The notes under the pieces are model-generated. The model made no database searches, was not told the origin of the DNA, and worked only from the letters and a program-made list of their open reading frames with translations. From Chiloscyllium plagiosum (Eukaryota): DNA of 20,000 nucleotides. The position numbers and the translations under genes were made by a program. Location of the stretch: contig NC_057718.1 of assembly GCF_004010195.1 (NCBI RefSeq), positions 4,701,219 to 4,721,218 on the forward strand, given 5' to 3'. This document shows, piece after piece, positions 358 to 15,325 of this stretch (positions within the stretch are counted from its first letter, which is position 1; each line of letters starts with the position of its first letter).

Positions 358-1156
358 TGATTCAATTGATCAAATTACTAGGCTTCAGCAAAATACATTT
401 CATGCTTACACCACATTGAAAATAAAAACAAAAAGATGGCATAACTTTTTAATTCTGTTGAAATATTTCATAAAATAATATATTATGTAACTACTTCTCA
501 TCAGCTGTTTCACTCGTAGAAGTAGCCCATAAACATTATCTTGGCAAAAGCAAATTCAGTAAACAGTTCTATTTTCACATGAGGTCATCACACTCTAATC
601 CAGTGGAATGAAATACTGACAGAAACGGTTGAGTCCAGCAGCAGAGAGAGATCATGAGTTTTTCTGCAGCAGCAGAGGGAGAGCTGTATCTAGCAGCTTC
701 AACTCCAAAAGCACAACATCAACAACTGAAAGCAAAAGCTAAAAGCCTGGCTCCATCCATCCATGTTTCTTTCATCGAATTTTGCTTTTAAACCCCAAAG
801 CTATTTCTCCTGCTTTCCATGGAGCAGCCATCCCAGTACCAGCTTTACAACACCCCTCTTCAAGAGAAATAGCATGGAACAATTCACACTGAAAGGCACA
901 TTTCATCACCAGTTGCTAAGAAATCAATATCAATGTCTGTAGAGCAATGCATCATCCATTAACTGCTTCAGTAATCTGGCCAGTTTGGTTATTTCTCTTT
1001 TTTGATTTATCCCTTCACTGTTAATTTGTATCTGTTGTATGAATGGATCTCGAAACAAATGTTCTTGGGTTTAAATCGTAGACATCATGTCAGGAATCTA
1101 TTATTCTCAAAGTCTGGATTGACCATTCAAAAATTTGGACACTAAACCATTGTGGT

Positions 1157-1251
1157 TCCTGAAGAAAGGCTTATGCCCGAAACATCGATTCTCCTGCTCC
1201 TCGGATGCTGCCTGGCCTGCTGTGTTTTTCCAGCACCACATTTTTCAACAT
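1157..1251 (+). mobile_element. Short Penelope-like (PLE-derived) element with hammerhead-like core and flanking direct repeat
   Basis: CTGAAGA-A-AGGC-TTAT-GCCC-GAAAC-ATC at 1159-1186, followed by GATGCTGCCTGGCCTGCTGTGTTTTTCCAGC shared with other copies. TAAACCATTGTGGT is repeated at 1143-1156 and 1252-1265. Confidence 0.75.
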
Positions 1252-1529
1252 TAAACCATTGTGGTCAATTTTGAGGGTCTTTGAAGGTTGTAATTTTACT
1301 GTGCTGCAAATACAGATCTAGAAAGGCAGATTTGATTTGGCTGTCTGTCTGTCGTAAGAAAATAAGTGAAGGAAATAAAGTTTGAACTGTTTAGAAATAT
1401 TTAACATGATTGTCTAAGTTTAACAACATTGATAATGCCAGCAGATGTGCGAGATACAAGAATAATGCTCAATGATAATTCCTGATCTATCATGTGGTCT
1501 CAGTTAATAGGACAGTATCATATACAGAA

Positions 1530-1704
1530 ATGGAATCTCCAATGCCCCTGGTTTTAAATCCACTGGATGGGAAACTGTCAGTGCATCCACCTGCTGTGGA
1601 CTTGTTAAAGACCATTGATCAGCCTTTGGTGGTTATTGCTCTGATTGGGAAATATCGTACAGGAAAATCATATCTGCTGAACTATCTTGCTGGAAAAAGG
1701 AAAG
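1530..1704 (+). CDS. GBP: Guanylate-binding protein (GBP1-like large GTPase), first coding exon
   Basis: Translation [58 protein letters not shown](G) resembles the vertebrate GBP N-terminus (human GBP1 [31 protein letters not shown]), with the G1 P-loop. Strong donor AAAG|GTAAGT at 1704/1705, phase 1. ATG at 1530; the upstream acceptor is ambiguous (AG ending at 1503, 1510, 1515 or 1527). Confidence 0.93.
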
Positions 1705-2029
1705 GTAAGTGTTGGAATGTGAAAGAACGTCGACTCACTGTCTACTTTGGAAATGATTCTGACAGTGTGTATCGGGAGAACTGAGCACCGATGGAAGCTT
1801 GCTGATTGAAGATCGATTGTTTGAGCGATGATGGCCCAGCAACAAACAGGAGTAAGTTTTCATGAAGTAGAAATATCCAAATCAATGTGATCGGTGACAA
1901 TGGGGATCACTGACCATTGGTTGAGAAGTCTAGGAATATTTGTGAATATCTCCCATAAACATCATCACCCAATTAGAATAGATGTAAAAACACAGAATTA
2001 AAGCATTAATTCATAGGACATTGCATTGT

Positions 2030-3023
2030 GATAAGTGACACACCTAAAAATGAGGTGTCAAACTGTTGAAGTTATGAAACAGGACTCTTTCTGTGCTAAA
2101 TGGCATAGACAGCATGTGACAGACAGAGCACAGCGATCCCAAAACCAAAGGATCAGATCCAATCTCTGCAATCCTACCACAGTCAGTGTGCAATGGTGGT
2201 GGATAATTAAACAACTCACGAAAGGCAGAGACTACACAAAGACCCCCCACCCTTAATGATGGGGGAGCCCAGTTCCTCAGTCCAAAATATAAAAAGGCTT
2301 AAGCATTTGCAACAGTGTTCAGCAAGATATGCCAAGTGACTGAACCATTACAGCTTCCTTTGGAGCTCCCCAGCATCCCAGAAGCCAGTCTTCAGCCAAT
2401 TTGAATCACATCACATGATGTCAGGAAATGGCTGAAGGTACTGGATACTGCAAAGGCTATAGGCCCTGACAATATTCTAGCAGAACACATGAGCTGCAGA
2501 ATTTGTAACACACCTAGCCAAGCTGTTCCTGTACAGCTGCAGCACTAGAATCTGGCCAACAATGTGAGAACTTGCCCAGGTGTGTGCTGTGCATAAAAAG
2601 CAGGACAAATTCTACCTGGTTTCTCATAAATCTCCTCTCATCATCAGTAACATGATGGAAGGTGTCATCAACAGTGCTATCAAACAACACTAACTCAGCA
2701 ATAACGTGCTTAGCGATGCCCAGTTTGGGTTCTGCCAGGGTCACTCAGCTCCTGCCCTCATTAGAAAGCCTTGGTTCAAACATGGACAAAAGAGCTGAAT
2801 TCTAGAGGGGAGGTGAGTGTGGCATCAAGGAGTCAGAGCAAAACTGGAATCAATGGGTATCAGGAGGAAGGCAGTCTGCTGGTTAGAGTCATATCTGGCA
2901 TATAAGAAGATGGCTATGATTGAGGTCAGTCATTTGCAGAGATGTTGTGGAGCTGAGGAGTTCCTCAGTAGTGTCCTAGGCTCAACCATCTTCAGCTGCT
3001 TCATCAATGACCTTCCCTCCATC
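2030..3023 (+). mobile_element. Decayed CR1-clade LINE (family A), ORF2/RT region, part 1
   Basis: Broken translations WWWIIKQLT, LDTAKAIGPDNI, AQFGFCQG, WHQGVRAKLESMGIR...SVLGSTIFSCFINDLPS; many stops and frameshifts. Confidence 0.8.
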
Positions 3024-3950
3024 TCCCAGTAAGATGGAGGCAGAGTAGGGCTTTTTGAGCCCTGGGCTTGTCTTCTGTCTGTATTTCTTTTCATTTCTTC
3101 CACTTTTTTCTCACTCCTTTCTCCTTTTTCTCTTTAATTTTGCTTTATTTACCTCTTGGTGAAGAGCTTGGTCACGGTGATAGCAGTGAGTAGGCCCGGC
3201 AGCACAGACTCAAGTGGGCCCAGCTGTGTGTCCTCACAGCAGTGACATTGGAAATGAGTCTGGGTTGCCCGCAGCTTCTGCATTACTGAGGCGGCCCTAG
3301 TGCCGACTCAACATCAAGTTCATCTTCCCTTCATTTGGCGGCTTTGGGTGAGGAGAGAGGTTCTAGGAGGTTGCCGTAGCGGAGCATGTGATGTGGATCC
3401 AGCTGTTCCTTGTGGCTGCTTCAGCAGACGCTGAAGACAAGGTAACAATGGGCATGGGATTCCAGTGGTCCGCATTTTCCTTGAGGCTTCTGCAGCATCT
3501 TTGCAGCAGCATGGTTGGTCTGGCCTAGCCTGGGACTCCTTTAGGTGGCTTCAGTGGCTCTCTACGTTCGTGTGGGTCTGGGTCTCCACATGGAGATTTC
3601 AGTCGGTCTGTGACACTTTATTTTCACCATCGTGGAGATCTGGCCTGAGATTCCAATGAGGGATTGGGTCTGGCCAACCCAGACCAGGAAAATGGATGAA
3701 ACAGACTCTATCTTAAATTCTCTTTTTTCTATTTTTTTTCATTATTACATTTTCATGGAAGGATTGTTATTCTGCTATATCCTTACTTTTCTAATTTATT
3801 AGAATGATTTTGTAGTTTTGAAGGTGTGTAATGTGTTTTTTTTCCTAATAATGTGTCATGAAGGTTTTGTACCTAGGTACCTTTGTCCCTCAGATGGCAC
3901 CCCGTAAGTGGTGACTTTAAACTTTTCACTGCACTCAAAGCTAATTCAAT
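3024..3950 (+). mobile_element. Unclassified non-autonomous retroposon-like insertion interrupting LINE family A
   Basis: Splits the RT between FINDLPSI and the GMFxxxC segment. Starts AAGATGG and ends in a TTTTCACTGCAC...AATTCAATTC tail like LINE/SINE 3' ends. No meaningful ORF. Confidence 0.5.
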
Positions 3951-4243
3951 TCCATTCAGAAGAGGGGATGTTCACCAGTTATTGCTATTGTTCAGCACCA
4001 GTCATGACTCCTCAGAAACTGAAGCAGTCCATATTGAAATGCAGCCAGACCTGGAAAATATCCAGGCTCATGCTGAAAGGTGGCAAGTAACATTCACATG
4101 TCACAAATTCCAGGCAATGACCATCTCCACGAACAGACCATCTAACGAGTGCCCCTTGGTGTTCAATGTTGTTACCATCACCGAATCTCCCTCTGTTGAC
4201 CTTCTTTGGGTTTCTATTGACCAGAAGTTGAGTTGGATTCACT
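3951..4243 (+). mobile_element. CR1-clade LINE family A, part 2
   Basis: FSTSHDSSETEAVHIEMQPDLENIQAHAERWQVTFTCHKFQAMTIS...SIDQKLSW, the RT C-terminal continuation of 2030-3023. Confidence 0.8.
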
Positions 4244-4931
4244 TAATGACAGGAGACAGAGACAGAGACTGATGATGGAGGCCAGTGGTGTTCCCCAGGG
4301 ATCGGTACTGGATCTACTTGTTTGTCACTTGTATAAATGATTTAGATCAGATTACAGAAAGCATGGTTACTAAGTTTGCAGATAACACCAAAATTGGTGT
4401 TGTAATGGACAGAGATCTTGATCGTTTGGAACAATTGTCTGAGGATTGGTATATGGAGTTTAATTTGGGTAAATGCAAGGTTTTGCATTTTAATAGAACA
4501 TATAAATAAGGCGAAGACGTATGCAATTAATGACTGGGCATTGGGTACTGTTGTAGAACAGAGAGCCAGGGTTTGGGTACAAATTCATTGACATCTGCAT
4601 GGTATTTGAGAAAGTGGTTAAGAAGGTGTTTAACATACTTGCCTTCATTGCTCAATCTTTTGAGTATAGGAGTTGGGACATGTTGTTGAGGTTGTACAGG
4701 ATATTGGTGAGGTGTCCAGTTCTGGCCACCCTGTTATTGGAAGGCTTTTATTAACCTGGAGAGGATGCAGAAGAGATTTACCAGGATGCTGATGGGTATG
4801 GAGGGTTTGGCACTTTTCTCAGTGGAGCATAGGAGGTTGAGCGATGACCACATCGAGATTTATAAAACAATAAGCGGTATAGACAAGGTGAATGGCAGGT
4901 GTCTTTACCTAAGGGTGAGGCATTTCAAGAC
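4244..4931 (+). mobile_element. CR1/HER1-type LINE fragment (family B) nested in family A
   Basis: INDLD...KFADNTKIG...WYMEFNLGKCKVLHF and MQKRFTRML, homologous to 18549-19640. Confidence 0.85.
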
Positions 4932-5017
4932 TGGGTGGGTACAACTCCAACTACACTCAGGAAGATCCACACCATCCAGGACAAAGAAGCCCACTTGATT
5001 GGCACCACATCCATCAC
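4932..5017 (+). mobile_element. CR1-clade LINE family A, part 3
   Basis: Encodes GTTPTTLRKIHTIQDKEAHLIGTTS, matching GAAPTTLKKLDTIQDKVAHLTGTTST at 16050-16161 (-). Confidence 0.7.
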
Positions 5018-5302
5018 ATACAGGAGCAGAATTAGTCGAATTGGTTAATTGAGTAAACTTCACCATTCTATTGTGGCTATCATGTCTCCCTGTAACCTTT
5101 GATTCCCTTACTAATTAAGAACCTCATATGACCACTACTCACATGACAAGCCTTTCATCTGCAGGGTCATTCTTGTAAACCTCCTCTGGGCCTCCTCCAA
5201 AGCCAACATGTCCTACTTTAGATATGGGACCAAAAACTGTTCTCAATATTCAGAATGCGGTCTGACGACAGCCTTATACAGTTTCAGTGGACATCTCTGC
5301 TC

Positions 5303-5518
5303 ACAAACAAAAGGAGAAATTGCTGGAAAAACTCAACAGGGCTGGCAACATCATGGAGAGAAAACAGAGTTCACAGTTCAGATCTAGTGACCCTTCTTCA
5401 TAACTGGTTGTGAAATGTTAACTTTGTTTCCTCTCTATAAATGCTGCAGATCTGCTGAGTTTTTCCAATATTTTCTGGTTTTGATCCTGTTTCCAACATC
5501 TGCCTTTCTTTGGATTTT
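5303..5518. mobile_element. Inverted (hairpin) PLE-like element with degenerate hammerhead core on the - strand
   Basis: Arms TTGCTGGAAAAACTCAACAG...GAGAGAAAACAGAGTT and AACTTTGTTTCCTCTC...CTGCTGAGTTTTTCCAATA are imperfectly complementary. Minus-strand 5401-5373 reads ATGAAGA-A-GGGTC-ACTA-GATCT-GAAC. Confidence 0.65.
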
Positions 5519-6687
5519 CTTCTTTAGTATATCCCTGTCCTTGCGCTCTAGCCCTCTTGAAATGAATGCTAACACTACATTTGCCTTCCTAACCAGGAAC
5601 TGAACCTGCAGGTTAACCTTAACAGAAATTAGCATCGGACCCTAATTCTCTTGATGCATCAGATTTACAAACCCTTTCTCTGTTTGGAAAGTAAACTGTG
5701 CCTCTATTCTTCCAACCAAAGTACATAACCTCCCATTTTCCCGCATTGTATTTCATCTGTTACTTCTTTGCCCACTCTCCCAGTCTGACCAAGTCCTCCT
5801 GTAACTTCTCCACATCTTCAACATTAGCTGTCTCTCCACCTGTCTTTGTCATCTGCAAACACAGCAACAATGTCCTCCGTTCCTTCATCCAGATTGTTAA
5901 TGTATAATGTAAATAGTTGTGACACTGACCCCTGTGGAACTCCAGCAGTCACCGGCTGCCATGCTGACAAAGATCCCTTTATCCCATTCTCTGCCTCTGC
6001 CTCTTCCTTTATCTAACCTGCCCATTACCACCCCAAAGAATTGTAAACAGGTTGGTCAGGCATGATCTTCCCTTGATGAAGCCATGCTGACTCAGCCCTA
6101 TTTTCACACACACTATTCTACAATTTCATTCTTAATAACAGACTCTAAAATCTTACCAGCAAATATGGTCAGGCTAACCAGCCTATAATTTCCTGTCTTC
6201 TCTCTCCCTCCTTAAGCAGGAGCGTTACATCAGCTATTTTCCAATCCACTGGGTCCATCCAGTGATTCCTGAACGATCACCACCAATGCCTGTATAATCG
6301 CCTCAGCTTTTCCCTCCAGAATCCTGGGGTGTAGTTCATCTGGTCCAGGTGGTTTATTCACCTTCAGCCCTTTCAGCTTCCTCAGCACCTTCCCCTCAGC
6401 GATAGTCACCTCTGCTCTCCTGACTCTCTTGAAGTTCTGGTGTGTGGCAGACTATGTCTCTAGCTTCATTTCCCACTACCTTGCTTCTTGTACCTTTTTA
6501 TATATCTAAAAGAACACCTGCAATCTTACATTGTCAGCTATCCTACACTCATATTTAATCTTCTCCCTTGTTATTGCTTTTTTGGTTATCATCAGCTGGT
6601 TTTTAAAGGCTGCCCCATCTTTTAGCTTCCTACGAATCTTCATAACATTGTATGCCTTTTCTGTTGCTTTATTCTGTCTTTAGTGAT

Positions 6688-6892
6688 TGTAATGAGGTCA
6701 GCCAGCTGGACCTCAAAGAATATGAGTTCCCTGATTGAGGCTGTTAATCTGGTGAATAAAAGGGGTGAGTGTCAGAGACACTGATCCTCTGGTGCCTGTC
6801 TCTGTATGAGGTATTGTTTTAGTCAAGGACTGTTCATGTGTAACTAAAGGGTGACTTGGCAATGGGATACCAACCTCTGTGAAGTTAGTCCA
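6688..6892 (+). mobile_element. Probable solo LTR
   Basis: About 205-bp insert in the CR1 copy, TGTAAT...CA ends, internal AATAAA. No clean TSD. Confidence 0.45.
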
Positions 6893-7010
6893 CTGTCCCT
6901 GACATCCCTTGATAGCCATTGTTGCTTCATCCTCCCCTTAGTTTGTTTCTTCCTCCTTGGAATGAATTTCTGTTTTTCCTTCTAAATTACTCCCAGAAGC
7001 CTTGCCACTA

Positions 7011-7949
7011 CTTTTTCTTCTAATTTCAAACCTATACTTTATTCGTAAAACATATCTTTATATACATACATAGTCATGAACCCAGTTCAGTTCTGTATGT
7101 AAGGAATAAAACTAACATTGGAGTTTGACTCTATTCAAACAAACCAAAGGCATTTCTTATTTGATCCAGACTATATTTATATGCGTTGAGGCACTAGGGG
7201 GAGTCTGATAACTGAATGGACTCCCATGTACCTTCAGCAGGAAGACCTTAGACATTGGCCTTTCCCCACTGCTCCTTGGCAGCAGCTGCCCCAAGATTTA
7301 GTGCGTCCCTCAGCACGTACTCCTGGACCTTGGAATGTTCAGGGCCAACTCATTGCTTAGGAAGACCAACAAGTTACCGACAAACCAAAGGGCATCTTTC
7401 ACCAAGTTGATGGTCCTCCAGTTGATGCTTGTCTCGGCGTGCGCACAGTTCATTTTTATCAAGATGGATTATTTTTTGACCAGTAAAGGAATTAAGGGTG
7501 AGAGTGAGAGGGCGGGTAAGTGAAGCTGAGGCCATGAAAAGATCAGCCATGATCTTATTGAATGGTGGAGCGGGATCAAAGACCCAGTTGGCCTACTCCT
7601 GCTTCTGTTTCTTATATCCCTCTGAACAGACCTTAGAGCAGAGAGTCCCGTGTCACAGAGCTGCTCGGGATGAACCTTCACACCAACCAGTGCATCTTCC
7701 TCTAGACTTCCTTTACAAAGGTGCACTCCAGCAGGAGATGTGTGATAATCCACGAACCCCCACCCCCCACAGCCACTTTGAGGGCAACGTGTGGTGGTGC
7801 AGACTGACCAGGCGTATATGAAGGATCTGATGGCAGTGTCAGATCCACCAGCCAAGCAATGTCTTGTTGACAGGTGATACGGAATGGTCCAACTACTTGG
7901 GGCGTTCCATTTTAGTGAGGCTACTCCCATCCTTCGCAACACTGGGGAC
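7011..7949 (-). mobile_element. Older 3' fragment of a Tx1/L1-clade non-LTR retrotransposon
   Basis: SPVLRRMGVASLKWNAPSSWTIPYHLS and TTTRCPQSGCGG are homologous to the 7965-9850 element. Shares the 3' terminal TATACTTTATTC (7033-7044 vs 7975-7986), with a T-rich tail at about 7012-7027. Confidence 0.8.
7447..7617 (+). mobile_element. CR1-type LINE 3' end nested in the older Tx1 fragment
   Basis: GATCAGCCATGATCTTATTGAATGGTGGAGC...GGCCTACTCCTGCTTCTGTTTCTTAT is the reverse complement of the CR1 termini near 5018 and 16955. Confidence 0.75.
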
Positions 7950-7964
7950 ATCCCCTGAAGTATC

Positions 7965-9850
7965 TTTTTTTTTATATACTTTATTCATAAAATAATTTGA
8001 TGGTCTGTACAGTTGGTCATGCCATACATATGTAAACATGTACATACAGAGATCAGAATTTATCATTTTTATACAGGTCTGTACATTTTTCCAATCATAT
8101 GCCCATATAATTAGCTGAGGCGTCAGCAGAGCCCAAATGACTGCATGGGCCCCCTGTTCTTCTTTAGGCAGGCAGACTTTACAATAGTTCTGTTAATGTT
8201 AATGTTCAAGTTCCATGAGTTGTTGATCCTCCAGGCACAGTTGATGTTCGTCTCGGTGTGCGTCTCAGAGAACAGGCCGTAGAGCTCGGAGTCCCGTGTC
8301 ATGGCGCTGCTCGGGACGAACCTCGACAGACACCACTGCATTCCTCTCCAGACTTCTTCTGCATTGGCACATTCCAGAAGGAGGTGTGTGACCGTCTTGT
8401 CCCCCCCGCAGCCGCTTTGAGGGCAGCGTGTGGTGCGGCTGAGAGTCCTGGCGTCCATAAAGGATCTCACAGGCAGAGCCCTTCTCACCACCAGCCAAGC
8501 TGTCTTGGTGCTTGTTGGAAAGTTCTGGTGATGAGGCATTCTGCCAAATGGCTTTGACAGTCTGCTCAGGGAACCGCTCGATAGGATCCGCCCTCTCCTT
8601 TTCCCGAAGGGTCTCAAGGACACTACGTGCTGACCACTTCCAGATGGACTTGTGGTCCACGAAGGACAGGTGATACGAAACACTCCAACTACTCGGAGCG
8701 TTCCGCGGCAGCGAGGCCAGGCCCATCCTTCGCAACACCAGGGACAGGTAGAACCTCAGTACGTAGTGACACTTGGTGTTTGCGTACCGGGGATCCACGC
8801 ACAGCTTGATGCAGCCACACACAAACATGGCCATCAGGGTGAGGGTGGCATTGGGTGTATTTTTTCCCCCGTTGCCCAGATCTTTAGACAGCGAGTCCCT
8901 TTGGACCCGGTCCATCTTTGACCTCCATATAAACTGGAAGATGGCCCGGGTGACTGCAGCGGCACAGGTTCTGGGAATAGGCCAGACCTGTGCCACGTAT
9001 AATAGCAATGACAGTGCCTCACACCTGATGACCAGGTTTTTTCCCATGATGGAGAGTGACCGTAGCTTCCATCTACCCAGTTTCTGCCTCACTTTGCTGA
9101 TACGCTCCTCCCAAGACCCGACGCACGCCCCAGCCCCCCCGAACCAAATACCCAGCACCTTCAGGTGGTTGGTCCTGAAGGTGAAGGGGATCGAGGATTG
9201 GTCGGCCCAGTTCCTGAAGAGCATGGCCTCGCTCTTGCCTCGGTTTACCTTGGCCCCCGAGGCCCGTTCGAACTGGTCACATATGCACATGAGTCTGTGC
9301 ACAGATAGTGGATCCGAGCAGAAAACGGCGACATCATCCATGTACAGGGAGGCCTTAACCTGCAGGCCCCCGCTGCCAGGAATAGTCACCCCTCTCAGGC
9401 TCGCATCCTTCCTGATGGACTCGGCAAATGGCTCTATGCAGCACACAAACAAGGCAGGAGAGAGAGGGCAGCCCTGCCTGACTCCAGATCTGACTGGGAA
9501 GCTATCTGATTCCCACCCATTGATTGAGACTGCACTGACAATGTTGGTGTAGAGCAGTCTGATCCAATTGCAGATTCCCTCCCCAAAGCCCATTTTGGAA
9601 AGAACATCTCTCATGTACCTGTGTGATATCCTGTCAAAGGCTTTCTCCTGGTCCAGGCTGATCAGGCAGGTGTCCAACCCTCTGTCCTGCACGTAGGCGA
9701 TCGTATCCCTGAGGTGTGCGAGACTCTCAGCGATCTTCCTGCCGGGAAAACACAGGTTTGGTCGGGGTGAATCACCGACCCAGAGCAGACCTGACCCGGT
9801 TGGCGATTACCTTTGACAGAATTTTGTAATCCGCATTCAACAGTGAGAGT
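7965..9850 (-). mobile_element. 5'-truncated Tx1/L1-clade non-LTR retrotransposon with poly(A) and 15-bp TSD
   Basis: Perfect TSD ATCCCCTGAAGTATC at 7950-7964 and 9851-9865; A9 tail (T run 7965-7973); AATAAA at 7985-7980; RT and CCHC-type motifs. Confidence 0.93.
8214..9850 (-). pseudogene. Tx1-like ORF2: reverse transcriptase plus C-terminal Cys/His motif, frameshifted
   Basis: LSLLNADYKILSKVIANR (frameshift) IHPDQT (frameshift) LDQEKAFDRISH, SGVRQGCPLSPALF, LYMDDV, LKVLGIWF (ORF 8265-9692). After a further frameshift, CPQSGCGGDKTVTHLLLEC. Endonuclease absent. Confidence 0.9.
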
Positions 9851-9977
9851 ATCCCCTGAAGTATCCCCCTTTCTCCTCAAGTACCTTCAGTAGAAGCTAC
9901 CTTCATGAAGCAGGGCGAGTCGACTGGCACTGTCCCTGCACCTTCTTCACTGTCAGCCTGACTGTATTGTGGGTCTG

Positions 9978-10064
9978 GAAATGTGTTGCTGGAAAAGTGC
10001 AGCAGGTCGGGCAGCATCCAGGGAACAGGAGAATCGACGTTTCGGGCATAAGCCCTTCTTCAGG
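9978..10064 (-). mobile_element. Short PLE-like element, best-preserved copy
   Basis: The reverse complement aligns along its length with 1158-1245. Confidence 0.8.
10036..10063 (-). ncRNA. Minimal hammerhead ribozyme-like motif (PLE type)
   Basis: CUGAAGA-A-GGGC-UUAU-GCCC-GAAAC-GUC: both conserved core boxes, a 4-bp stem II, a palindromic ACGU at stem III and a GUC triplet. Activity is not demonstrated. Confidence 0.65.
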
Positions 10065-10889
10065 ACCCTGGTCTGAGAATCAGGCACTAGCCCAGGTTAT
10101 AGCTCTGGTTGGCTGCTCACTGAATGGGTGTTAGGCCAATATAGCAAAGTAAACACCAATTGCAACTCAGTTAAACTGACAATCCACCACGTTCTGCTCT
10201 CAATCACAATCCAGAAAATTTCAACTGGTCTTTTAGTTTGTAACCTGTAAACATTTCCCCTATTTTCCTTCAACCTGAATGTAACCAATAATAGTCCAAT
10301 TCGTTGCACACACCAAACCATAAGGTTTGTGATATGACTCTTTTGTGCTGTGCCCCTTATCCTGGGCTTCCATTTATCCCATTGGATTCTCCCATTCTCC
10401 GCCAAATTCCCCAAACTATATATTCACTCAGACTGTGTCTAGCTCAGGATGTGATCTCTCCTTCTTGACTGTGTGAAGCATTCCACTTGGACTTTGAGAA
10501 ATCAAATCCATTCACTCAGCCTCTTCCTGTCCCCCATTCTCACAAACTTTCTCCAACCAGGTCCCCACTGTCCCCATACTCAGAGGTTTCTTTGTCCTCT
10601 CTCTCTGAATCCCTGATTCAGTTTCTTCATCATAATATTTGTCATCTCCCTCCTGAAACTCCCTTTAAACTGTGGAAAATCATCAAGCTGAGAGTTAATC
10701 AAACAATTTCTTCACAGAACATTTTCACTCTCTTTAAAACCATTTCTAGATCACAATCTCTTCCACCATGATGTAATGTGCTCAAGGAACTAGAAAGACT
10801 CTCTACATGGAGATGAACTTTGCAAGTTCCTGAATAATGTGGGTAACCATGGGGGAAAGAAGGTGAGATTCTGAAAGTCAAGGCAATAA

Positions 10890-11196
10890 TAGAATAAAAT
10901 CCCTACAGTTTGGGGACAGGCCATTCGGCCGAACAAGTCCACACTGACCCTCTGAACAGCACCCAGCCCTAACCAAGCCCCCTTCCTTATCCTTACAACC
11001 CTGCATTTCCTATGGTTAACCCACTGAACCGACTTATCCCTGGACACTATGGCCACTCCATCTAACCTGCATATCTTTATCCTGTGGGAGGAAACCCATG
11101 GGGAGGATGTGTAAACTCCACACAGTCACCTGGGGGTGGAATCAAACCTGGGGTCCCTGGTGCTGTGAGACAGTAGTGCTAGCCCCCTTGCCGCCC
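10890..11196 (-). mobile_element. HE1-like V-SINE, diverged
   Basis: Reverse complement of the 11444-11750 SINE (AAACTCCACACAG, CTAACCTGCA, ACAGGCCATTCGGCCGAACAAGTCCACAC). Confidence 0.8.
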
Positions 11197-11295
11197 TCAT
11201 CAGATTTTATAGTGAAGGCTTTAACACTGAGATGAAAATCTCGCTCATGAGGAGTGAGGTACTTATTTGTACCCATTTACAGCTCATCATTACCA

Positions 11296-11482
11296 ACTAT
11301 CACCGCTATGCTGATTGTTTATTCTTCCATATGGGAGAGAGGAATTGGCCTGCAACAGTTTCCCACAGTGAAACCAGAGCGTTACTCTGCCAGGTGTAGC
11401 TAACTGGTCTTTTCATAAAGTCTTCATCTTCACCAACATCCATGGGTGGCACGGTGGCAGAGTGGTTAGCACTGCTGCCTCA
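11296..11482 (+). repeat. 187-bp direct repeat, copy 1
   Basis: Matches 12010-12196 with 4 substitutions by manual count. Confidence 0.95.
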
Positions 11483-11750
11483 CAGTGTCAGAGACCCGGG
11501 TTCAATTCCTCAGGCGACTCTCTGTGTGGAGTTTGCACATTCTCCCCGTGTCTGTGTGGGTTTGCTCCAGTTTCCTCCCACAATCCAAAAATGTGCAGGT
11601 TAGGTGAATTGGCCAGGCTAAATTGCCCGTAGTGTTGGGTGAAGGGGTAAATGTAGGGGAATGGATCTGGGTGGGTTACACTTCGGCGGGTCGGTGTGGA
11701 CTTGTTGGGCCGAAGGGCCTGTTTCCACACTGTAACTAATCTAATCTAAT
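11444..11750 (+). mobile_element. HE1-like tRNA-derived V-SINE, full length
   Basis: Box A TGGCAGAGTGG (11455-11465), box B GGTTCAATTCC (11499-11509), V-domain TCTGTGTGGAGTTTGCACATTCTCCCCGTGTCTG, HER1-like 3' tail GGGCCGAAGGGCCTGTTTCC and (CTAAT)3. Confidence 0.9.
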
Positions 11751-12009
11751 AATCCCTCAACCTCTCTGGGAATGCTCCAAGGAAACCGAGCTGTCTACTT
11801 GGTCCATACAATAGGGCATCAGTGGGATACCAGTCTCCCAGAATCAGTCTCATAGCTGACCCCCCACTCACTGAGAATACACTTCTGAAGTTTGCATTTC
11901 ACTGCTCACTTTGCATCCTGACACCCCCATCTCCCACTCCTCAACAGGGGGCCTCTCAGCTTGATTCACTTGCTCTCTTTGCGCTCACTCACTTACTGTT
12001 TGCTTGGAG

Positions 12010-12196
12010 ACTATCACCGCTATGCTGATTGTTTATTCTTCCATGTGGGAGAGAGGAATTGGCCTGCAACAGTTTCCCACAGTGAAACCAGAGCGTTACT
12101 CTGCCAGGTGTAGCTAACTGGTCTTTTTATAAAGTCTTCATCTTCACCAACATCCATGGGTGGCACGGTGGCACAGTGGTTAGCACTGCTGCTTCA
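12010..12196 (+). repeat. 187-bp direct repeat, copy 2 (includes the first ~39 nt of the SINE head)
   Basis: Offset of 714 bp from copy 1. Confidence 0.95.
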
Positions 12197-12552
12197 TTGA
12201 GAGCCTGTAGATTTACTGCACCTCTGCCTTGGCTCACCTTTTAGCACAGAGCCCAGCAGCTTGTTATACCTGCTCACCCTCCACATCCTGGGTATAGACA
12301 GGTTACTATCCAGCATAGTGTTATCTCATTGGAAAACCTAGAGTGTATGTGAGTGACATTCTTGGAGTAGAAAGGGCGAGGAAGCCTCTCAGTGACCTGT
12401 GTACATTTCTCTGTGGGTATCTGGTTACCCAGTGATACCATCCTGGCTCCATGTAACAGGACAGTAGTTCAGTGTGGACTGATGGTCTTTTCACAGGAGG
12501 AGAGGGAATAAGTTCTGCAATAAGGCTCGAACCTGCACATGTTAAGAATCAG

Positions 12553-12670
12553 GAGAAAGTGAGGACTGCAGATGCTGGAGGTGAGAGTCGAGAGTGTGTT
12601 GCTGGAAAATCTCCTGTCCCTCAGATGCTGTCTGACATGCTGTGCTTTTCCAGCACCACACTCGCGACAG
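12553..12670. mobile_element. Internally deleted hairpin PLE-like element with 12-bp TSD
   Basis: GTTAAGAATCAG at 12541-12552 and 12671-12682. Arms GTCGAGAGTGTGTTGCTGGAAAA and TTTTCCAGCACCACACTCGCGAC. No hammerhead core left. Confidence 0.8.
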
Positions 12671-13334
12671 GTTAAGAATCAGTTGACAGCAGTGGGAATG
12701 GGACAGCAGCAAAGCAGAGCCCAATGCAGATTGTTGGGTTGCCTGAACATGGAGCTTTTTGGTGTCTCCAATTGAGCAGCCATGATCCTGTCCAGCTCCT
12801 CATCGCTGCTGAGCACATGATTACACAAGAGTGGTGCCACAGAAGTGTGGTGCATCCCTAATAATGTGAGCAGGCTGAGGTTGTGAGAGAACTCCCTGCA
12901 GCTCTACATGAAGCGGAACTCTGCATGAAACTCCCTGAAACTGACACTGAGCCAATTTCTTGTGAAATTGCATCGTGAAACCAATGTCCCTGTCCTCATG
13001 GTGAACAATCCATACATTTATACAAAGAAGTTAGCATTATTCCCATCTCCAGGTCAACTTTCCCTTGACCACGCCATCATGAACAATTGTGTAAAACCCT
13101 GTGATCTTCCTGTGCTACATAAATAGAACTGTTTTCTTCCTTTCCTCTTGCTTTATTTCTATCTGCTTTGTCCCATTTTCTCTGTTCAATCTCTCTGCTG
13201 ACCCTCTTCTTCATAACTAACCATCTCCTTAAATCCATCTTCTCCTGGGTCTCGACTTCCCTACACCTGTCTACCATTCCAATGGTGGGGCAGTCCCTGA
13301 TCAGAGAAACTGTTCTGTTTCAAAACCATCATGA

Positions 13335-13433
13335 GCCTGAAACATTAACCCTGGCCCCCTCCTCCCAGACACTGTCAGACTTGCTGAGGTTTGATGTTTT
13401 TTTCTCTGGTTTCCATTGTCTGGAATATCCTGC
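13335..13433 (+). mobile_element. Highly degenerate PLE-like copy
   Basis: CCTGAAACATTAACCCTG...CAGACACTGTCAGACTTGCTGAG resembles the family 3' part; preceded by a pyrimidine-rich tract. Confidence 0.4.
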
Positions 13434-13798
13434 TGCTGTGTCGAAGTTGTCAGGAGTGGCTCCTCCTGGATGTCAATCCAAATCTCACAGCCAGCCTCCC
13501 CTGTCCTGAACAGCCTGGAGCAAGGTTTGAAAACTCCTCAAGTATGTCCCAAATTCTCACTCCGAATATCCTGTTCTCACTGACTACAACAATAACACAG
13601 CTATTCAACTGATCAAAGCAACCAGCATATGTCTATTTGGATGGTACTGATTCAGGAGAATTGCTGTTGAGGGGCATGAGCATCTAGCTGAACTGGAAAG
13701 TGAGAGCTTTATTTTAAAATCCCATCTGGAAGATTCTGTGTGAAAGGCCATCATTCCTGTCGGAGTGTACATCCCAGTCTAGGTGCTGGGTATAAACA

Positions 13799-14001
13799 GG
13801 AGACAGTGAGGACTGCAGATGCTGGAGATCAGAGTTGAAAAGTGTGGCACTGGAAAAGCACAGCAGGTCAGGCAGCATCCAAGGAACAGGAGAGTCAATG
13901 TTTTGAGCATAAAGCCTTTCATCTGTGCTTGAAATGTCAACCCTCCTGCTCTTCAGATGCTGCCTGACCTGCTGTGTTATTCCAGCATCACACTTCATCG
14001 A
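13799..14001. mobile_element. Hairpin PLE-like element with 15-bp TSD
   Basis: TGCTGGGTATAAACA (13784-13798) vs TGCTGTGTATAAACA (14002-14016). About 70-bp inverted arms with a perfect 21-bp core (13859-13879 / 13956-13976). Confidence 0.85.
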
Positions 14002-14098
14002 TGCTGTGTATAAACACTTTCCCCAAAAAGCAAGATGTTATTCACTGAATAAACTTTACACTGAATAACACGGGTGATTATTTATTTGGTTTCACCAG

Positions 14099-14226
14099 GG
14101 TTTCAAGTTGGAGGCAGCATACAGTCAGAGACAAAGGGAATCTGGATGTGGTGTCTCCCACATCCCCAGAAGAAAGTTTGCTGCCTGCTGCTGCTGGACA
14201 CTGATGGGCTTGGAGATGTGGGAAAG
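14099..14226 (+). CDS. GBP: Guanylate-binding protein, second coding exon (switch I/G2 and G3 motifs)
   Basis: Acceptor TTTGGTTTCACCAG|GG at 14098/14099; donor AAG|GTAAAA at 14226/14227; 128 nt. G1704+GG completes a Gly codon, then [42 protein letters not shown], matching GBP [43 protein letters not shown]. Confidence 0.93.
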
Positions 14227-14789
14227 GTAAAACTGTTTCTTTTCACAGCCACATGAAGAACAGCATTAACACATGGAATGTCCTGTTAATGAATGGTCAT
14301 CCATTCCCTGGGCAGGAATACGATCAGTCAGGGCCTGTATTCACTATGTTCAGACAATGAGGACAGTGCACCTGAATTTGCTCCATTATTCCCATTCCAG
14401 AGCCCACACCATTGCTCGGACTAAAGGCTATTTAAATACTCCGGGTGGACAGCCATGTCATTGCAAACACTGGGGGATGCCTGACTCTGGGTAAGGTGAG
14501 GAAAAGTGATCAGGTAATTTTGAAAAGTGCGATTCCTTCATGGAATTGATCAAAAGCAAGTCAGACATTCACAGTTTCAATGTAATTCTTCATCAATACA
14601 GTGAATGCCTCTGGATAACAGGATTGTACAGGGCTCTTATTGAATTAGAGATATTGTGTATTGCCAAAGCTGTGTATAATACCCCTTTTTATAGAGTTCT
14701 ATTCCATGATCTGTGCTGAGATACCCCATACCTCCCTGTTCCTGGGAAACATTTGTTGGTACTCTCTCCATGACCAGATCATTGTTCCT

Positions 14790-15155
14790 CAGATAAGGAA
14801 ACCAGAATCCACGTCCCTTGGATAGATGCAGCGAGGTACCTCTGCTCTTTTACTCGAATCCTCTCACTTGGAAGGCCAATATACCACTAGCCTCCTTCAC
14901 TACCTGCTGCACCCATGTGCTTACTTTCAGTGACTGATGTACAAGGACACCCAGGACTCTGCATATTCCCCTGCCTCAGTTTGTAGTCATTCAGATAATA
15001 AGTTGCCTTCCTGTTTTTGTTCCCAAAGTGGATATCCTCATATTTATCCCCATTATAATGTATTTGCCACTCCCTCAGCTTGTCCAAATCACTTGAATCT
15101 CTACATTGTCCTCACAGCTCACCCTCCCACCCAGCTTTGTCATCTGTAAACTTGG
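14790..15155 (-). mobile_element. CR1-type LINE RT fragment
   Basis: DKLREWQIHYNGDKYEDIHFGNKNRKATYYLNDYKL, with an upstream SKFTDDTKLGG-like segment. Confidence 0.75.
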
Positions 15156-15217
15156 AGAGATTAAATTTTGGGTGACTCCATGAAAAGAGCAAGCTGAAGT
15201 TGTGAGTATGGACAATG

Positions 15218-15325
15218 CTTCATCAAGGTTTTGATGAAGAGTCAACTAGACTCCAAACGTTAGCATGCTGTCCCTCTGTGGATGCTGCCTGACCTGCTGT
15301 GATCTCTGGCAAATAGTTTTGTTCA
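15218..15325 (+). mobile_element. PLE-like element of a second subfamily with mutated hammerhead core
   Basis: TTGATGA-A-GAGTC-AACTA-GACTC-CAAAC-GTT (15231-15261), then GGATGCTGCCTGACCTGCTGTG. Small inverted head CTTCATCAA-GGTT-TTGATGAAG. Confidence 0.7.

Follow-up and report, generated by a model that had tools for sequence, protein, structure and literature searches.

Short hammerhead-bearing repeats in a shark genomic window resemble terminal-repeat stubs of Penelope-like elements

What are the short related elements that recur along a 20,000-nucleotide stretch of the Chiloscyllium plagiosum genome (NC_057718.1, positions 4,701,219 to 4,721,218; hereafter the window), and which process left them there? 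An earlier note, made from the sequence alone, had placed members of the group at 1157, 5303, 9978, 12553, 13799, 15218 and 13335. All seven loci are present at these positions, and each was found by a leave-one-out profile, with E values of 1.5e-20 (1157), 7.9e-19 (9978), 3.8e-8 (15218), 4.8e-19 and 1.7e-16 (the two 13799 arms), 1.8e-7 and 2.1e-5 (the two 5303 arms), 1.5e-6 (13335) and 2.8e-10 (12553 right arm). They comprise 10 arms and 4.5% of the window, and belong to 3 lineages (A, B and C); a full-profile search of the window gave no extra loci at E <1. The density of stubs is approximately 1 per 3 kb. A strict descriptor of core plus stem, allowing at most 1 mismatch, finds 2 sites against a shuffle mean of 0.04 (2 reached in 0/300 shuffles), and a relaxed one finds 3 against 0.31, a value reached in 1/300 shuffles.

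The note had described a ribozyme motif for the whole group. This stands for four arms, which keep a near-complete hammerhead core (1159+, 5401-, 10063- and 15231+), and not for the remaining loci, since the 13799 core is decayed and 5'-cut and the 12553 and 13335 loci are coreless. Only 10063- is fully intact, with all core bases, G10.1-C11.1 and a palindromic GUC site. It belongs to a solo lineage-A stub on the minus strand (9975..10065), and the 38 nt of the minimal hammerhead (10031..10068, minus strand; core 10063-10036, predicted cut 10036/10035) have the hammerhead fold as their minimum free energy structure, at -10.3 kcal/mol. The other solo lineage-A stub (1157..1251, plus strand) has a tail-less end and starts 2 nt before hammerhead C3; in its core (1159..1186, plus strand, predicted cut 1186/1187) both boxes are intact and the palindrome is broken, the changes being G10.1>A and G16.2>A. 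The lineage-B left arm at 5308..5406 (minus strand) carries a damaged core (5401-5372) with C3>A, A15.1>C and a G at 17, and the core of the lineage-C stub at 15218..15325 (plus strand), at 15231-15261, has U3 and G12>C.

The four helix II stems listed in the note are confirmed: GGGC/GCCC in 10063-, GGGUC/GAUCU in 5401-, GAGUC/GACUC in 15231+ and, with one mismatch, AGGC/GCCC in 1159+. The AGGC mismatch at 1167 is damage private to the 1157 copy, as G makes up approximately 96% of the depth in both DNA runs; G is also the majority letter at 1184, against the changed letter in this copy. Helix II is 4-5 bp long (5 bp in 5401- and 15231+), and helix I, which the note did not mention, has 2 contiguous pairs in 1159+, 5 in 10063-, 4 in 5401- and 3 in 15231+, some outer pairs possibly being formed with flank letters (3 of the 5 in 10063-). 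The sequence of helix I varies between lineages, and both helices are paired in all three. The CUGANGA box, followed by one additional unpaired base ahead of helix II, is exact in two of the four cores and has a single change, at position 3, in the other two. The pair closing helix II, 10.1-11.1, is G-C in 10063- and 15231+ and G-U in 5401-, with an A in 1159+. GAAAN is followed by a palindromic 15.1-16.1 region and an NUH site, with no helix III stem; the ACGU palindrome is present in 2/4 cores, and single-copy changes break the rest.

Judged by their sequences, these features (box, G10.1-C11.1, GAAAN with palindrome, short helix I) fit the minimal hammerheads of metazoan Penelope-like elements (PLEs), for which self-cleavage, as a dimer or with the help of a protein, would be predicted. 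The published consensus has an extra base after A9, a helix I of 2-5 bp, GUU or GUC sites and a UUGA variant (PMC4209133). Like the window cores, the motifs compiled by Cervera and De la Pena in 2014 (PMC4209133) combine CUGANGA plus one base, G10.1-C11.1 and a short helix I with GAAA followed by a palindromic ACGU and no helix III stem. They too form several covarying families per genome; most occur singly and are ascribed to truncated PLEs, while some are opposite-strand pairs 100-700 bp apart. Differences are that helix II is short here and that a shark entry is absent from the two supplementary files searched (PMC4209133). The match to this consensus, together with PLE insertion anatomy described below, bears out the proposed link to PLE-type hammerheads. 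None of the 5 Rfam matches with E not above 5 is to a hammerhead family or reaches the gathering score; as Rfam evidently does not catch minimal motifs, this is no counter-evidence.

The claim of subfamily-level covariation holds in part: covariation is seen between the 3 source lineages, across which pairing is kept, and not among copies. Across lineages, 31/34 helix cells pair and both sides have changed in 3/8 pairs, values reached by 10 to 96 of 500 shuffles in a count whose structure was derived from the same sequences and covers three lineages only. Covariation is not decisive as proof of selection on structure. Helix pairing may be under selection in active source elements, and not in the genomic copies.

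PLE insertions are characterised by a tail of 30-40 bp on one side only and an inverted partner copy that is truncated at its 5' end (Craig 2021, PMC8557442), and by 8-10 bp duplications and 5' palindromes (Arkhipova 2013, PMC3846280). Target duplications of 9-15 bp flank 3 of the 7 loci, at sites that are 64-78% AT compared to 55% for the window; none was found at the other four, the 5303 and 9978 loci included (for 9978, none that is significant). The solo arm at 1157 lies between exact 14-bp copies (1143..1156 and 1252..1265), whereas 0/1000 random window pairs share 14 exact bases. At 12553 the copies (12541..12552 and 12671-12682) are 12 bp and exact, or 9 bp if the final 3 letters belong to the tail, and at 13799 (13784..13798 and 14002-14016) they are 15 bp with one mismatch, 9 of them exact. 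Among random pairs, at least 9 exact bases occur in 21/1000 and at least 12 in 2/1000.

A head-to-head, inverted, 5'-truncated partner is found at 4/7 loci. At 5303, the lineage-B right arm (5403..5502, plus strand) begins in loop II, has a partial tail and overlaps the left arm by approximately 4 nt. The coreless lineage-A fold-back at 12553..12670 has a left arm with tail on the minus strand (12553-12609) and a right arm on the plus strand (12610-12670) that begins approximately 3 nt past the predicted cut position. In the lineage-A fold-back at 13799..14001, the left arm (minus strand, to approximately 13923) has a decayed core and the right arm (plus strand) starts from loop II; at 15218, the partner is a 9-bp inverted stub at the 5' end (15218-15226). 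A tail of 37 nt is carried by the left arm only at 13799 (13797..13833, minus strand; 3 nt shared with the duplication), and a similar one by the left arm at 12553, giving a one-sided tail of 34-37 nt that is absent from 1157. There are accordingly two 3' end points, approximately 35 nt apart. All four fold-back centres in the window differ, and the centres also vary over 9 opposite-strand joint rows among the 15 listed of 26. The seventh locus (13332..13410, plus strand) is an old decayed stub that begins in the 3' strand of helix II and lacks the first box; it is probably lineage B, a call read by eye at pairwise identities of 54-73%.

Mutator-like DNA transposons have long inverted repeats and duplications of approximately 9 bp. 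A miniature transposon of this or a similar kind, with a chance likeness to a hammerhead, would suit the long fold-backs at 3 loci (z -8.6, -6.7, -2.1) and the exact duplications of 9 bp at minimum at 2 loci. It is nevertheless an extremely improbable explanation, already largely refuted by the solo arm that owns a 14-bp duplication. Moreover, duplication length is not fixed (14, 9-12 and 9-15), the tail makes the arms asymmetric, the centres vary, and the pairing of helices I and II, in the register of published hammerheads, is kept in three lineages. Neither a fixed duplication length nor symmetric terminal inverted repeats on every insertion are seen, and a DNA-transposon origin, one of the outcomes that the note named as refuting it, is not borne out. 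The arms of 13799 differ at 18 of approximately 74 positions, 17 of them transitions and 8 at CpG sites; 4 CpG sites differ, all decayed in both arms. An ADAR-edited hairpin template for this locus was rejected because the differences consist of CpG decay and mixed transitions.

Among the options left by the note, truncated pLTR ends fit best, given the one-arm tail, variable target duplications and variable fold-back centres. The elements are very probably PLE stubs. The whole best explanation, which we regard as probable, is that they are dead-on-arrival, neutrally decaying pLTR insertions of 3 endonuclease-positive Penelope-like lineages. With insertions of such PLEs (PMC3846280; PMC8557442; Frangieh 2024, PMC11167929, for the Anolis Poseidon element PAc) they share head-to-head arms, a tail of 34-37 nt on one side, duplications that vary from 9 to 15 bp, AT-rich sites, a core kept uncleaved and distances of approximately 90-125 nt from core to 3' ends. 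In contrast to endonuclease-positive PLEs, only the terminal 80-200 bp are present here and no attached ORF was seen, so the assignment stops above the level of clade (Poseidon, Neptune or other). In the window, none of the copies is joined to a reverse transcriptase or GIY-YIG sequence (ORF list; 7 frames scanned). Three protein searches with the arm reading frames did not find a PLE protein, but have little power, as the arms may not code for protein. Two frames considered as PLE ORFs were rejected: one returned a single host gene model among 1,178 candidates and 4 repetitive chance proteins from a representative library, the other 4 of 335, all shark host gene models. An Atlas search gave only scores <0.8.

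In PAc, the tail is delimited by two internal start sites, cutting and extension take place on both strands, and uncleaved RNA is the main template; copying begins at +111-118, and RNA is required up to +172 (PMC11167929). By analogy, a PLE protein would nick both strands of an AT-rich target, and reverse transcription would start inside the RNA at either of two sites, approximately 90 or 125 nt downstream of the core, pass through the uncleaved hammerhead, and halt at or short of the 5' end of the RNA, which would lie several bases ahead of the core. A single priming event would yield a solo stub, and priming from both strands at two sites a head-to-head pair with a tail on one arm. We give the run-off and double-priming details, drawn from PAc, about an even chance. 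For head-to-head junctions, Arkhipova 2013 (PMC3846280) prefers self-priming on an antisense template as the source. The 4-nt overlap at the 5303 centre is equally compatible with snap-back. It is possible, if unlikely, that insertion geometry in vivo is set by the hammerhead region, with stubs being run-off products of the first 100-130 nt (approximately) of either a PLE transcript or a stub-only RNA, and with some fold-back junctions arising at the cut site or by helix I snap-back; if so, some 10^5-10^6 shark insertions would record the start point of PLE RNA and whether the hammerhead acts during transposition. What the hammerhead does in PLE transposition, and how head-to-head pLTRs arise, are described as open questions (PMC11167929, PMC8557442, PMC3846280), and the value of the family lies in its material: a genome with approximately 1 stub per 3 kb offers junctions enough for tests of cut-site, RNA-start and double-priming models by statistics alone.

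Penelope-like terminal-repeat stubs are known as a kind from other animals; the present family is very abundant, in a shark-like genome. In each DNA run, approximately 50,000 contigs align to one copy, which is a tally of contigs and not of copies, and on this basis abundance looks far higher than the 4,000-9,000 motifs of coelacanth and Xenopus (PMC4209133). An expansion of Penelope-like elements has been reported in whale shark (10.1101/443036). Around the 1157 copy, elevated depth is limited to 1148-1255, with background on either side; at the loose ends, upstream agreement is low (0.33-0.44) and the tail is visible downstream. The loose-end peak at 1156 marks the end of the reference copy only, because the family extends at least 5 nt further upstream. 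No empty site for this insertion was seen in contigs; a skip from 1085 to 1254 in one contig was rejected as such, since it mismatches the duplication and touches another repeat. The insertion is shared with another organism (B), a contig of which covers the element together with its flank.

Such copy numbers, the uniform size and the background depth on both sides of the unit could also be produced by a self-standing non-autonomous family, a SINE-like partner whose 95-130-nt unit is transcribed and recopied in trans by a PLE protein, with stubs giving rise to further stubs. Rotifer pLTRs alone have moved foreign DNA (PMC3846280), and the repeat is found in 2,203 of the 12,955,460 records covered from RNA run X21. 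We nonetheless consider this family quite improbable. The reads come from both strands and 2,200/2,203 are partial fits, like passengers of longer transcripts, the fold-back centres are particular to each copy, and PAc insertion needs RNA past the copied part (PMC11167929), which implies that some of the binding site would be missing from a stub. For window positions 900-1800 no RNA match is listed, which carries no weight on expression.

A third possibility, that the dispersed copies are monomers of a retrozyme whose tandem copies yield circular RNA by hammerhead cleavage, resembles one of the options offered in the note. Non-LTR retrozymes (PMC7229834; Li et al. 2026, 10.64898/2026.07.22.740005) are likewise non-coding, PLE-related and dispersed as monomers, with a type I hammerhead; there are reports of them from one chondrichthyan, and of pLTR derivatives among them (10.64898/2026.07.22.740005). 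In the contigs, 3 of the 15 joint rows listed (26 in total; 3 contigs in X10 and 1 in X15) step back 90 nt, head to tail. Retrozymes are, however, defined by head-to-tail tandems with at least 2 complete hammerheads and by circular RNA. Copies in the window stand alone or head to head; they are minimal, and most are damaged. Of the loci, 0/7 are head-to-tail, and TRF detects no array of the unit in the window. The motif is minimal here, against canonical type I in tandems of approximately 300 nt (PMC7229834); the helix III stem is lacking, as are contacts of loop 1 with loop 2, the window cores having no helix III loop. This weighs less than the tandem arrangement, because Li et al. 2026 (10.64898/2026.07.22.740005) admit minimal motifs. 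The ends of the copies lie at the tail sites and ahead of the core rather than where the hammerhead would cut. In run X21, a polyA single-cell library that is ill-suited to the question and of which approximately 2% was read, no begin/end pile-up was seen and no back-joints occur among the matches listed. With no array, a minimal hammerhead and mostly decayed cores, a retrozyme-like family is very improbable.

For the unlikely reading in which the hammerhead region sets the insertion geometry, the joints offer a further observation. In 14/21 contigs with opposite-strand joints among the rows listed (15 of 26), and in 4 RNA reads, the start of the second arm falls 2-6 nt beyond the predicted cut, between 1188 and 1192, as does that of the 12553 right arm; this cluster may reflect no more than the detection edge of the joint caller. 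A hammerhead pattern scan of viral contigs gave 0 matches. Matches in metagenome contigs (7) and prokaryote genomes (10) were attributed to chance, because the likeness of these 17 loci to the window copies covers the pattern alone (best 31.9 bits). No printed occurrence of a 19-nt arm core was found in the literature searched, nor did any title or abstract start name the family in sharks; Repbase and Dfam lay outside this search, and we do not claim absence from print. The whale shark repeat library (PMC8455134), the PAc consensus file or bioRxiv supplements may already classify the family. Some shark gene models also contain stubs, either at an end or internally, which makes the stubs relevant to annotation.

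The short repeats form a group of seven loci and ten arms (single oriented copies), delimited by blastn and profile searches, that together cover 4.5% of the window (890 bp). Leave-one-out profiles searched against the window recover every locus (E 2e-5 to 2e-20), confirming that the short elements picked out in the earlier note are real, and the profile search of the window gave no further locus below E 1. Lineage A comprises the arms of the loci starting at 1157, 9978, 12553 and 13799, with a mutual likeness of 76-87% downstream of helix II; over the same part, the loci at 5303 (lineage B) and 15218 (lineage C) have 61-74% likeness to lineage A arms. The locus at 13335 is an older copy, with 54-73% likeness to other arms. 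Chiloscyllium and Hemiscyllium have gene models that contain the repeat (best E 3e-11), which makes a carpet-shark-like host likely. These repeats are probably a further example of an already described kind of Penelope-like element (PLE) hammerhead: in PMC4209133, from 2014, single minimal hammerheads from truncated PLEs are described as widespread, and a Penelope-like expansion is mentioned for the whale shark in 10.1101/443036. A literature search, with repeat databases and several supplements outside its reach, returned no paper describing this shark repeat family.

In the published consensus of metazoan PLE minimal hammerheads (PMC4209133, including Fig. S3), CUGANGA plus one extra base is followed by a helix II closed by G-C, GAAAN, a palindrome that has no helix III stem, and NUH; helix I is short. 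With one mismatch allowed, a strict descriptor finds 2 sites in the window, a number reached by 0 of 300 shuffles; looser descriptors find 3 sites (1 of 300 shuffles) and 6 sites (3 of 300), 2 of the 6 being non-family sites. An Rfam search did not catch the motif of the window copies. Only the 10063- core is intact, and the hammerhead fold is the minimum free energy structure of its 38-nt stretch. The 1159+ core has two changes, 5401- has three, and 15231+ lacks G12; the core is decayed at locus 13799 and absent at 12553 and 13335. At 15218-15239, a 9-bp fold-back has U at hammerhead position 3 in both arms, so this variant was already in the template; a UUGA core also occurs in one published PLE-linked motif (Fig. 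S3 of PMC4209133).

The four stem II sequences quoted in the earlier note are exact, and in the published register helix II is 4 pairs long in lineage A and 5 in each of lineages B and C. Helix I pairs too: the four cores have 2, 5, 4 and 3 uninterrupted pairs, in letters that differ per lineage. Across five arms, 31 of 34 cells are paired and both members have changed in 3 of 8 pairs; with the partner shifted by 1-3 columns, pairing falls to 15-46%. The stem pairing that the earlier note took as a sign of selection is kept in three lineages, but the observed measures are matched or exceeded by 10 to 96 of 500 shuffles. Since, in addition, the structure was drawn from the tested sequences themselves and only three lineages are independent, the covariation is not decisive alone; it is consistent with selection in the source elements.

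Target duplications were found at three of the seven loci: 14 bp exact at 1157, 12 bp exact at 12553, or 9 with three letters assigned to the tail, and, at 13799, either 9 bp exact or 15 with one mismatch. Under the null, at least 9, 12 and 14 exact bases occur 21, 2 and 0 times per 1,000, and a closer search at the remaining four loci gave zero duplications. At four loci the arms face each other head-to-head, and no two of these loci have the same centre. Arm lengths are near equal at 5303 (99 and 100 nt) and 12553 (about 57-60 and 61 nt) and unequal at 13799. At 13799 and 12553, a one-sided tail extends 34-37 nt past the stop point of the other arm and of solo 1157, with hardly any difference in sequence between these two tails. 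The described signature of PLE insertions is an inverted, 5'-truncated neighbouring copy plus a one-sided tail of 30-40 bp (PMC8557442 and PMC3846280). Between the two 13799 arms there are 18 differences; 17 are transitions, and 8 fall at four CpG sites that have decayed in each arm. The arms have 3 letters in common that are absent from 1157 and 9978. This pattern fits a single template copied twice, with neutral decay afterwards.

The arm asymmetry, and a solo arm that has a target duplication to itself, rule out a miniature inverted-repeat DNA transposon, which the earlier note had named as an outcome that would overturn its reading. The retrozyme-like option of the earlier note is not supported: retrozymes consist of head-to-tail tandems and have circular RNA (PMC7229834 and bioRxiv 10.64898/2026.07.22.740005), and the window contains no head-to-tail tandem array of the repeat unit. 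A PLE origin is favoured by the motif and the insertion anatomy, but three protein searches with the arm reading frames returned host gene models or chance matches and no RT+GIY-YIG gene. A pattern search of microbial and viral collections likewise gave chance matches only. No RT+GIY-YIG gene was found tied to any window copy, so PLE membership rests on motif and anatomy.

According to PMC11167929, the protein of the Anolis PLE PAc cuts and extends both strands, and reverse transcription begins internally, 111-118 nt into the ORF, at two positions that delimit the tail. The template is mainly uncleaved RNA, and RNA is needed out to +172; the ORF begins at helix II, and the ribozyme cleaves only with protein present. 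The window copies have an alike geometry, as their 3' ends lie some 90 and 125 nt away from the core. By analogy, a transcript that begins shortly before the hammerhead would yield a copy of only 95-130 nt, priming from both strands would give a head-to-head pair with a single tail, and such stubs, lacking part of the binding site, would be dead. Copy 5' ends would mark the RNA start, a prediction partly tested by three window copies that start 2-5 nt upstream of C3. The mirror arm would be made anew at each insertion, as partly tested by the varying centres; snap-back or antisense self-priming is a live alternative source of the inverted arm.

We compared 4 of 24 listed sequencing runs with window positions 1040-1370 at 80% likeness. 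Two DNA runs (organisms A and B) gave 47,506 and 50,539 matching contigs and a probable RNA run (organism C) 9,790, nearly all on 1148-1255. Summed depth there, which is not a copy number, reaches 6.3 million versus 3-13 in the left flank; run abundance is of the same order as the density in the window, where one locus occurs every 3 kb. G predominates at 1167 (96%) and 1184 (about 60%), showing that the defects of copy 1157 are private to it; no other helix II changes occur among the matches listed (40 of 75 rows). Upstream loose ends agree poorly past about five further family letters, and downstream the tail is visible in some records. Among the joint rows listed (15 of 26), 9 join opposite strands at varied centres, 5 step back (3 of these, seen in 4 contigs, by 90 nt) and 1 skips. 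In 7 of the 9 listed opposite-strand rows (1156-1235), arm 5' ends lie 32-37 nt apart, approximately the tail length, an offset that may be the detection limit of joint calling. From 1254 to 1350, a second, lower-copy repeat starts right where the 1157 insertion stops (depth about 1,000 in one run).

In a raw polyA single-cell run, 2,203 of 12,955,460 records matched, on both strands and 2,200 only in part. The reads have no pile-up of begins or ends, in a library that cannot test cleavage. RNA read depth is continuous across the predicted cut position, and the reads suggest repeat passengers in longer transcripts.

The window is vertebrate DNA with abundant retroelement remains. Copy 1157 lies about 280 bp upstream of a plus-strand guanylate-binding protein exon (1530-1704; Pfam PF02263, E 3e-13; GT donor at 1705), and other copies may lie within an intron of this gene. 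A LINE-type RT open frame of 513 aa occupies 8265-9806 on the minus strand (PF00078, E 3e-26); its 3' part recurs just beside it, at about 7470-7950, as an older copy with 75-80% identity. A 187-bp direct duplication (11296-11482 and 12010-12196; 98% identity, 714 bp apart) is too long for an ordinary target duplication; it includes the head of an element at about 11437-11750 that we take to be SINE-like, although ARAGORN found no tRNA. Several gene models of sharks and other vertebrates (FUBP3-like, BTBD6-B, MRVI1-type) contain or end in repeat-derived peptide. At 12553 and 13799, a CpG-type change has produced a pyrimidine tract plus AG on the plus strand (near 12624 and 13957) that may act as a cryptic splice acceptor.
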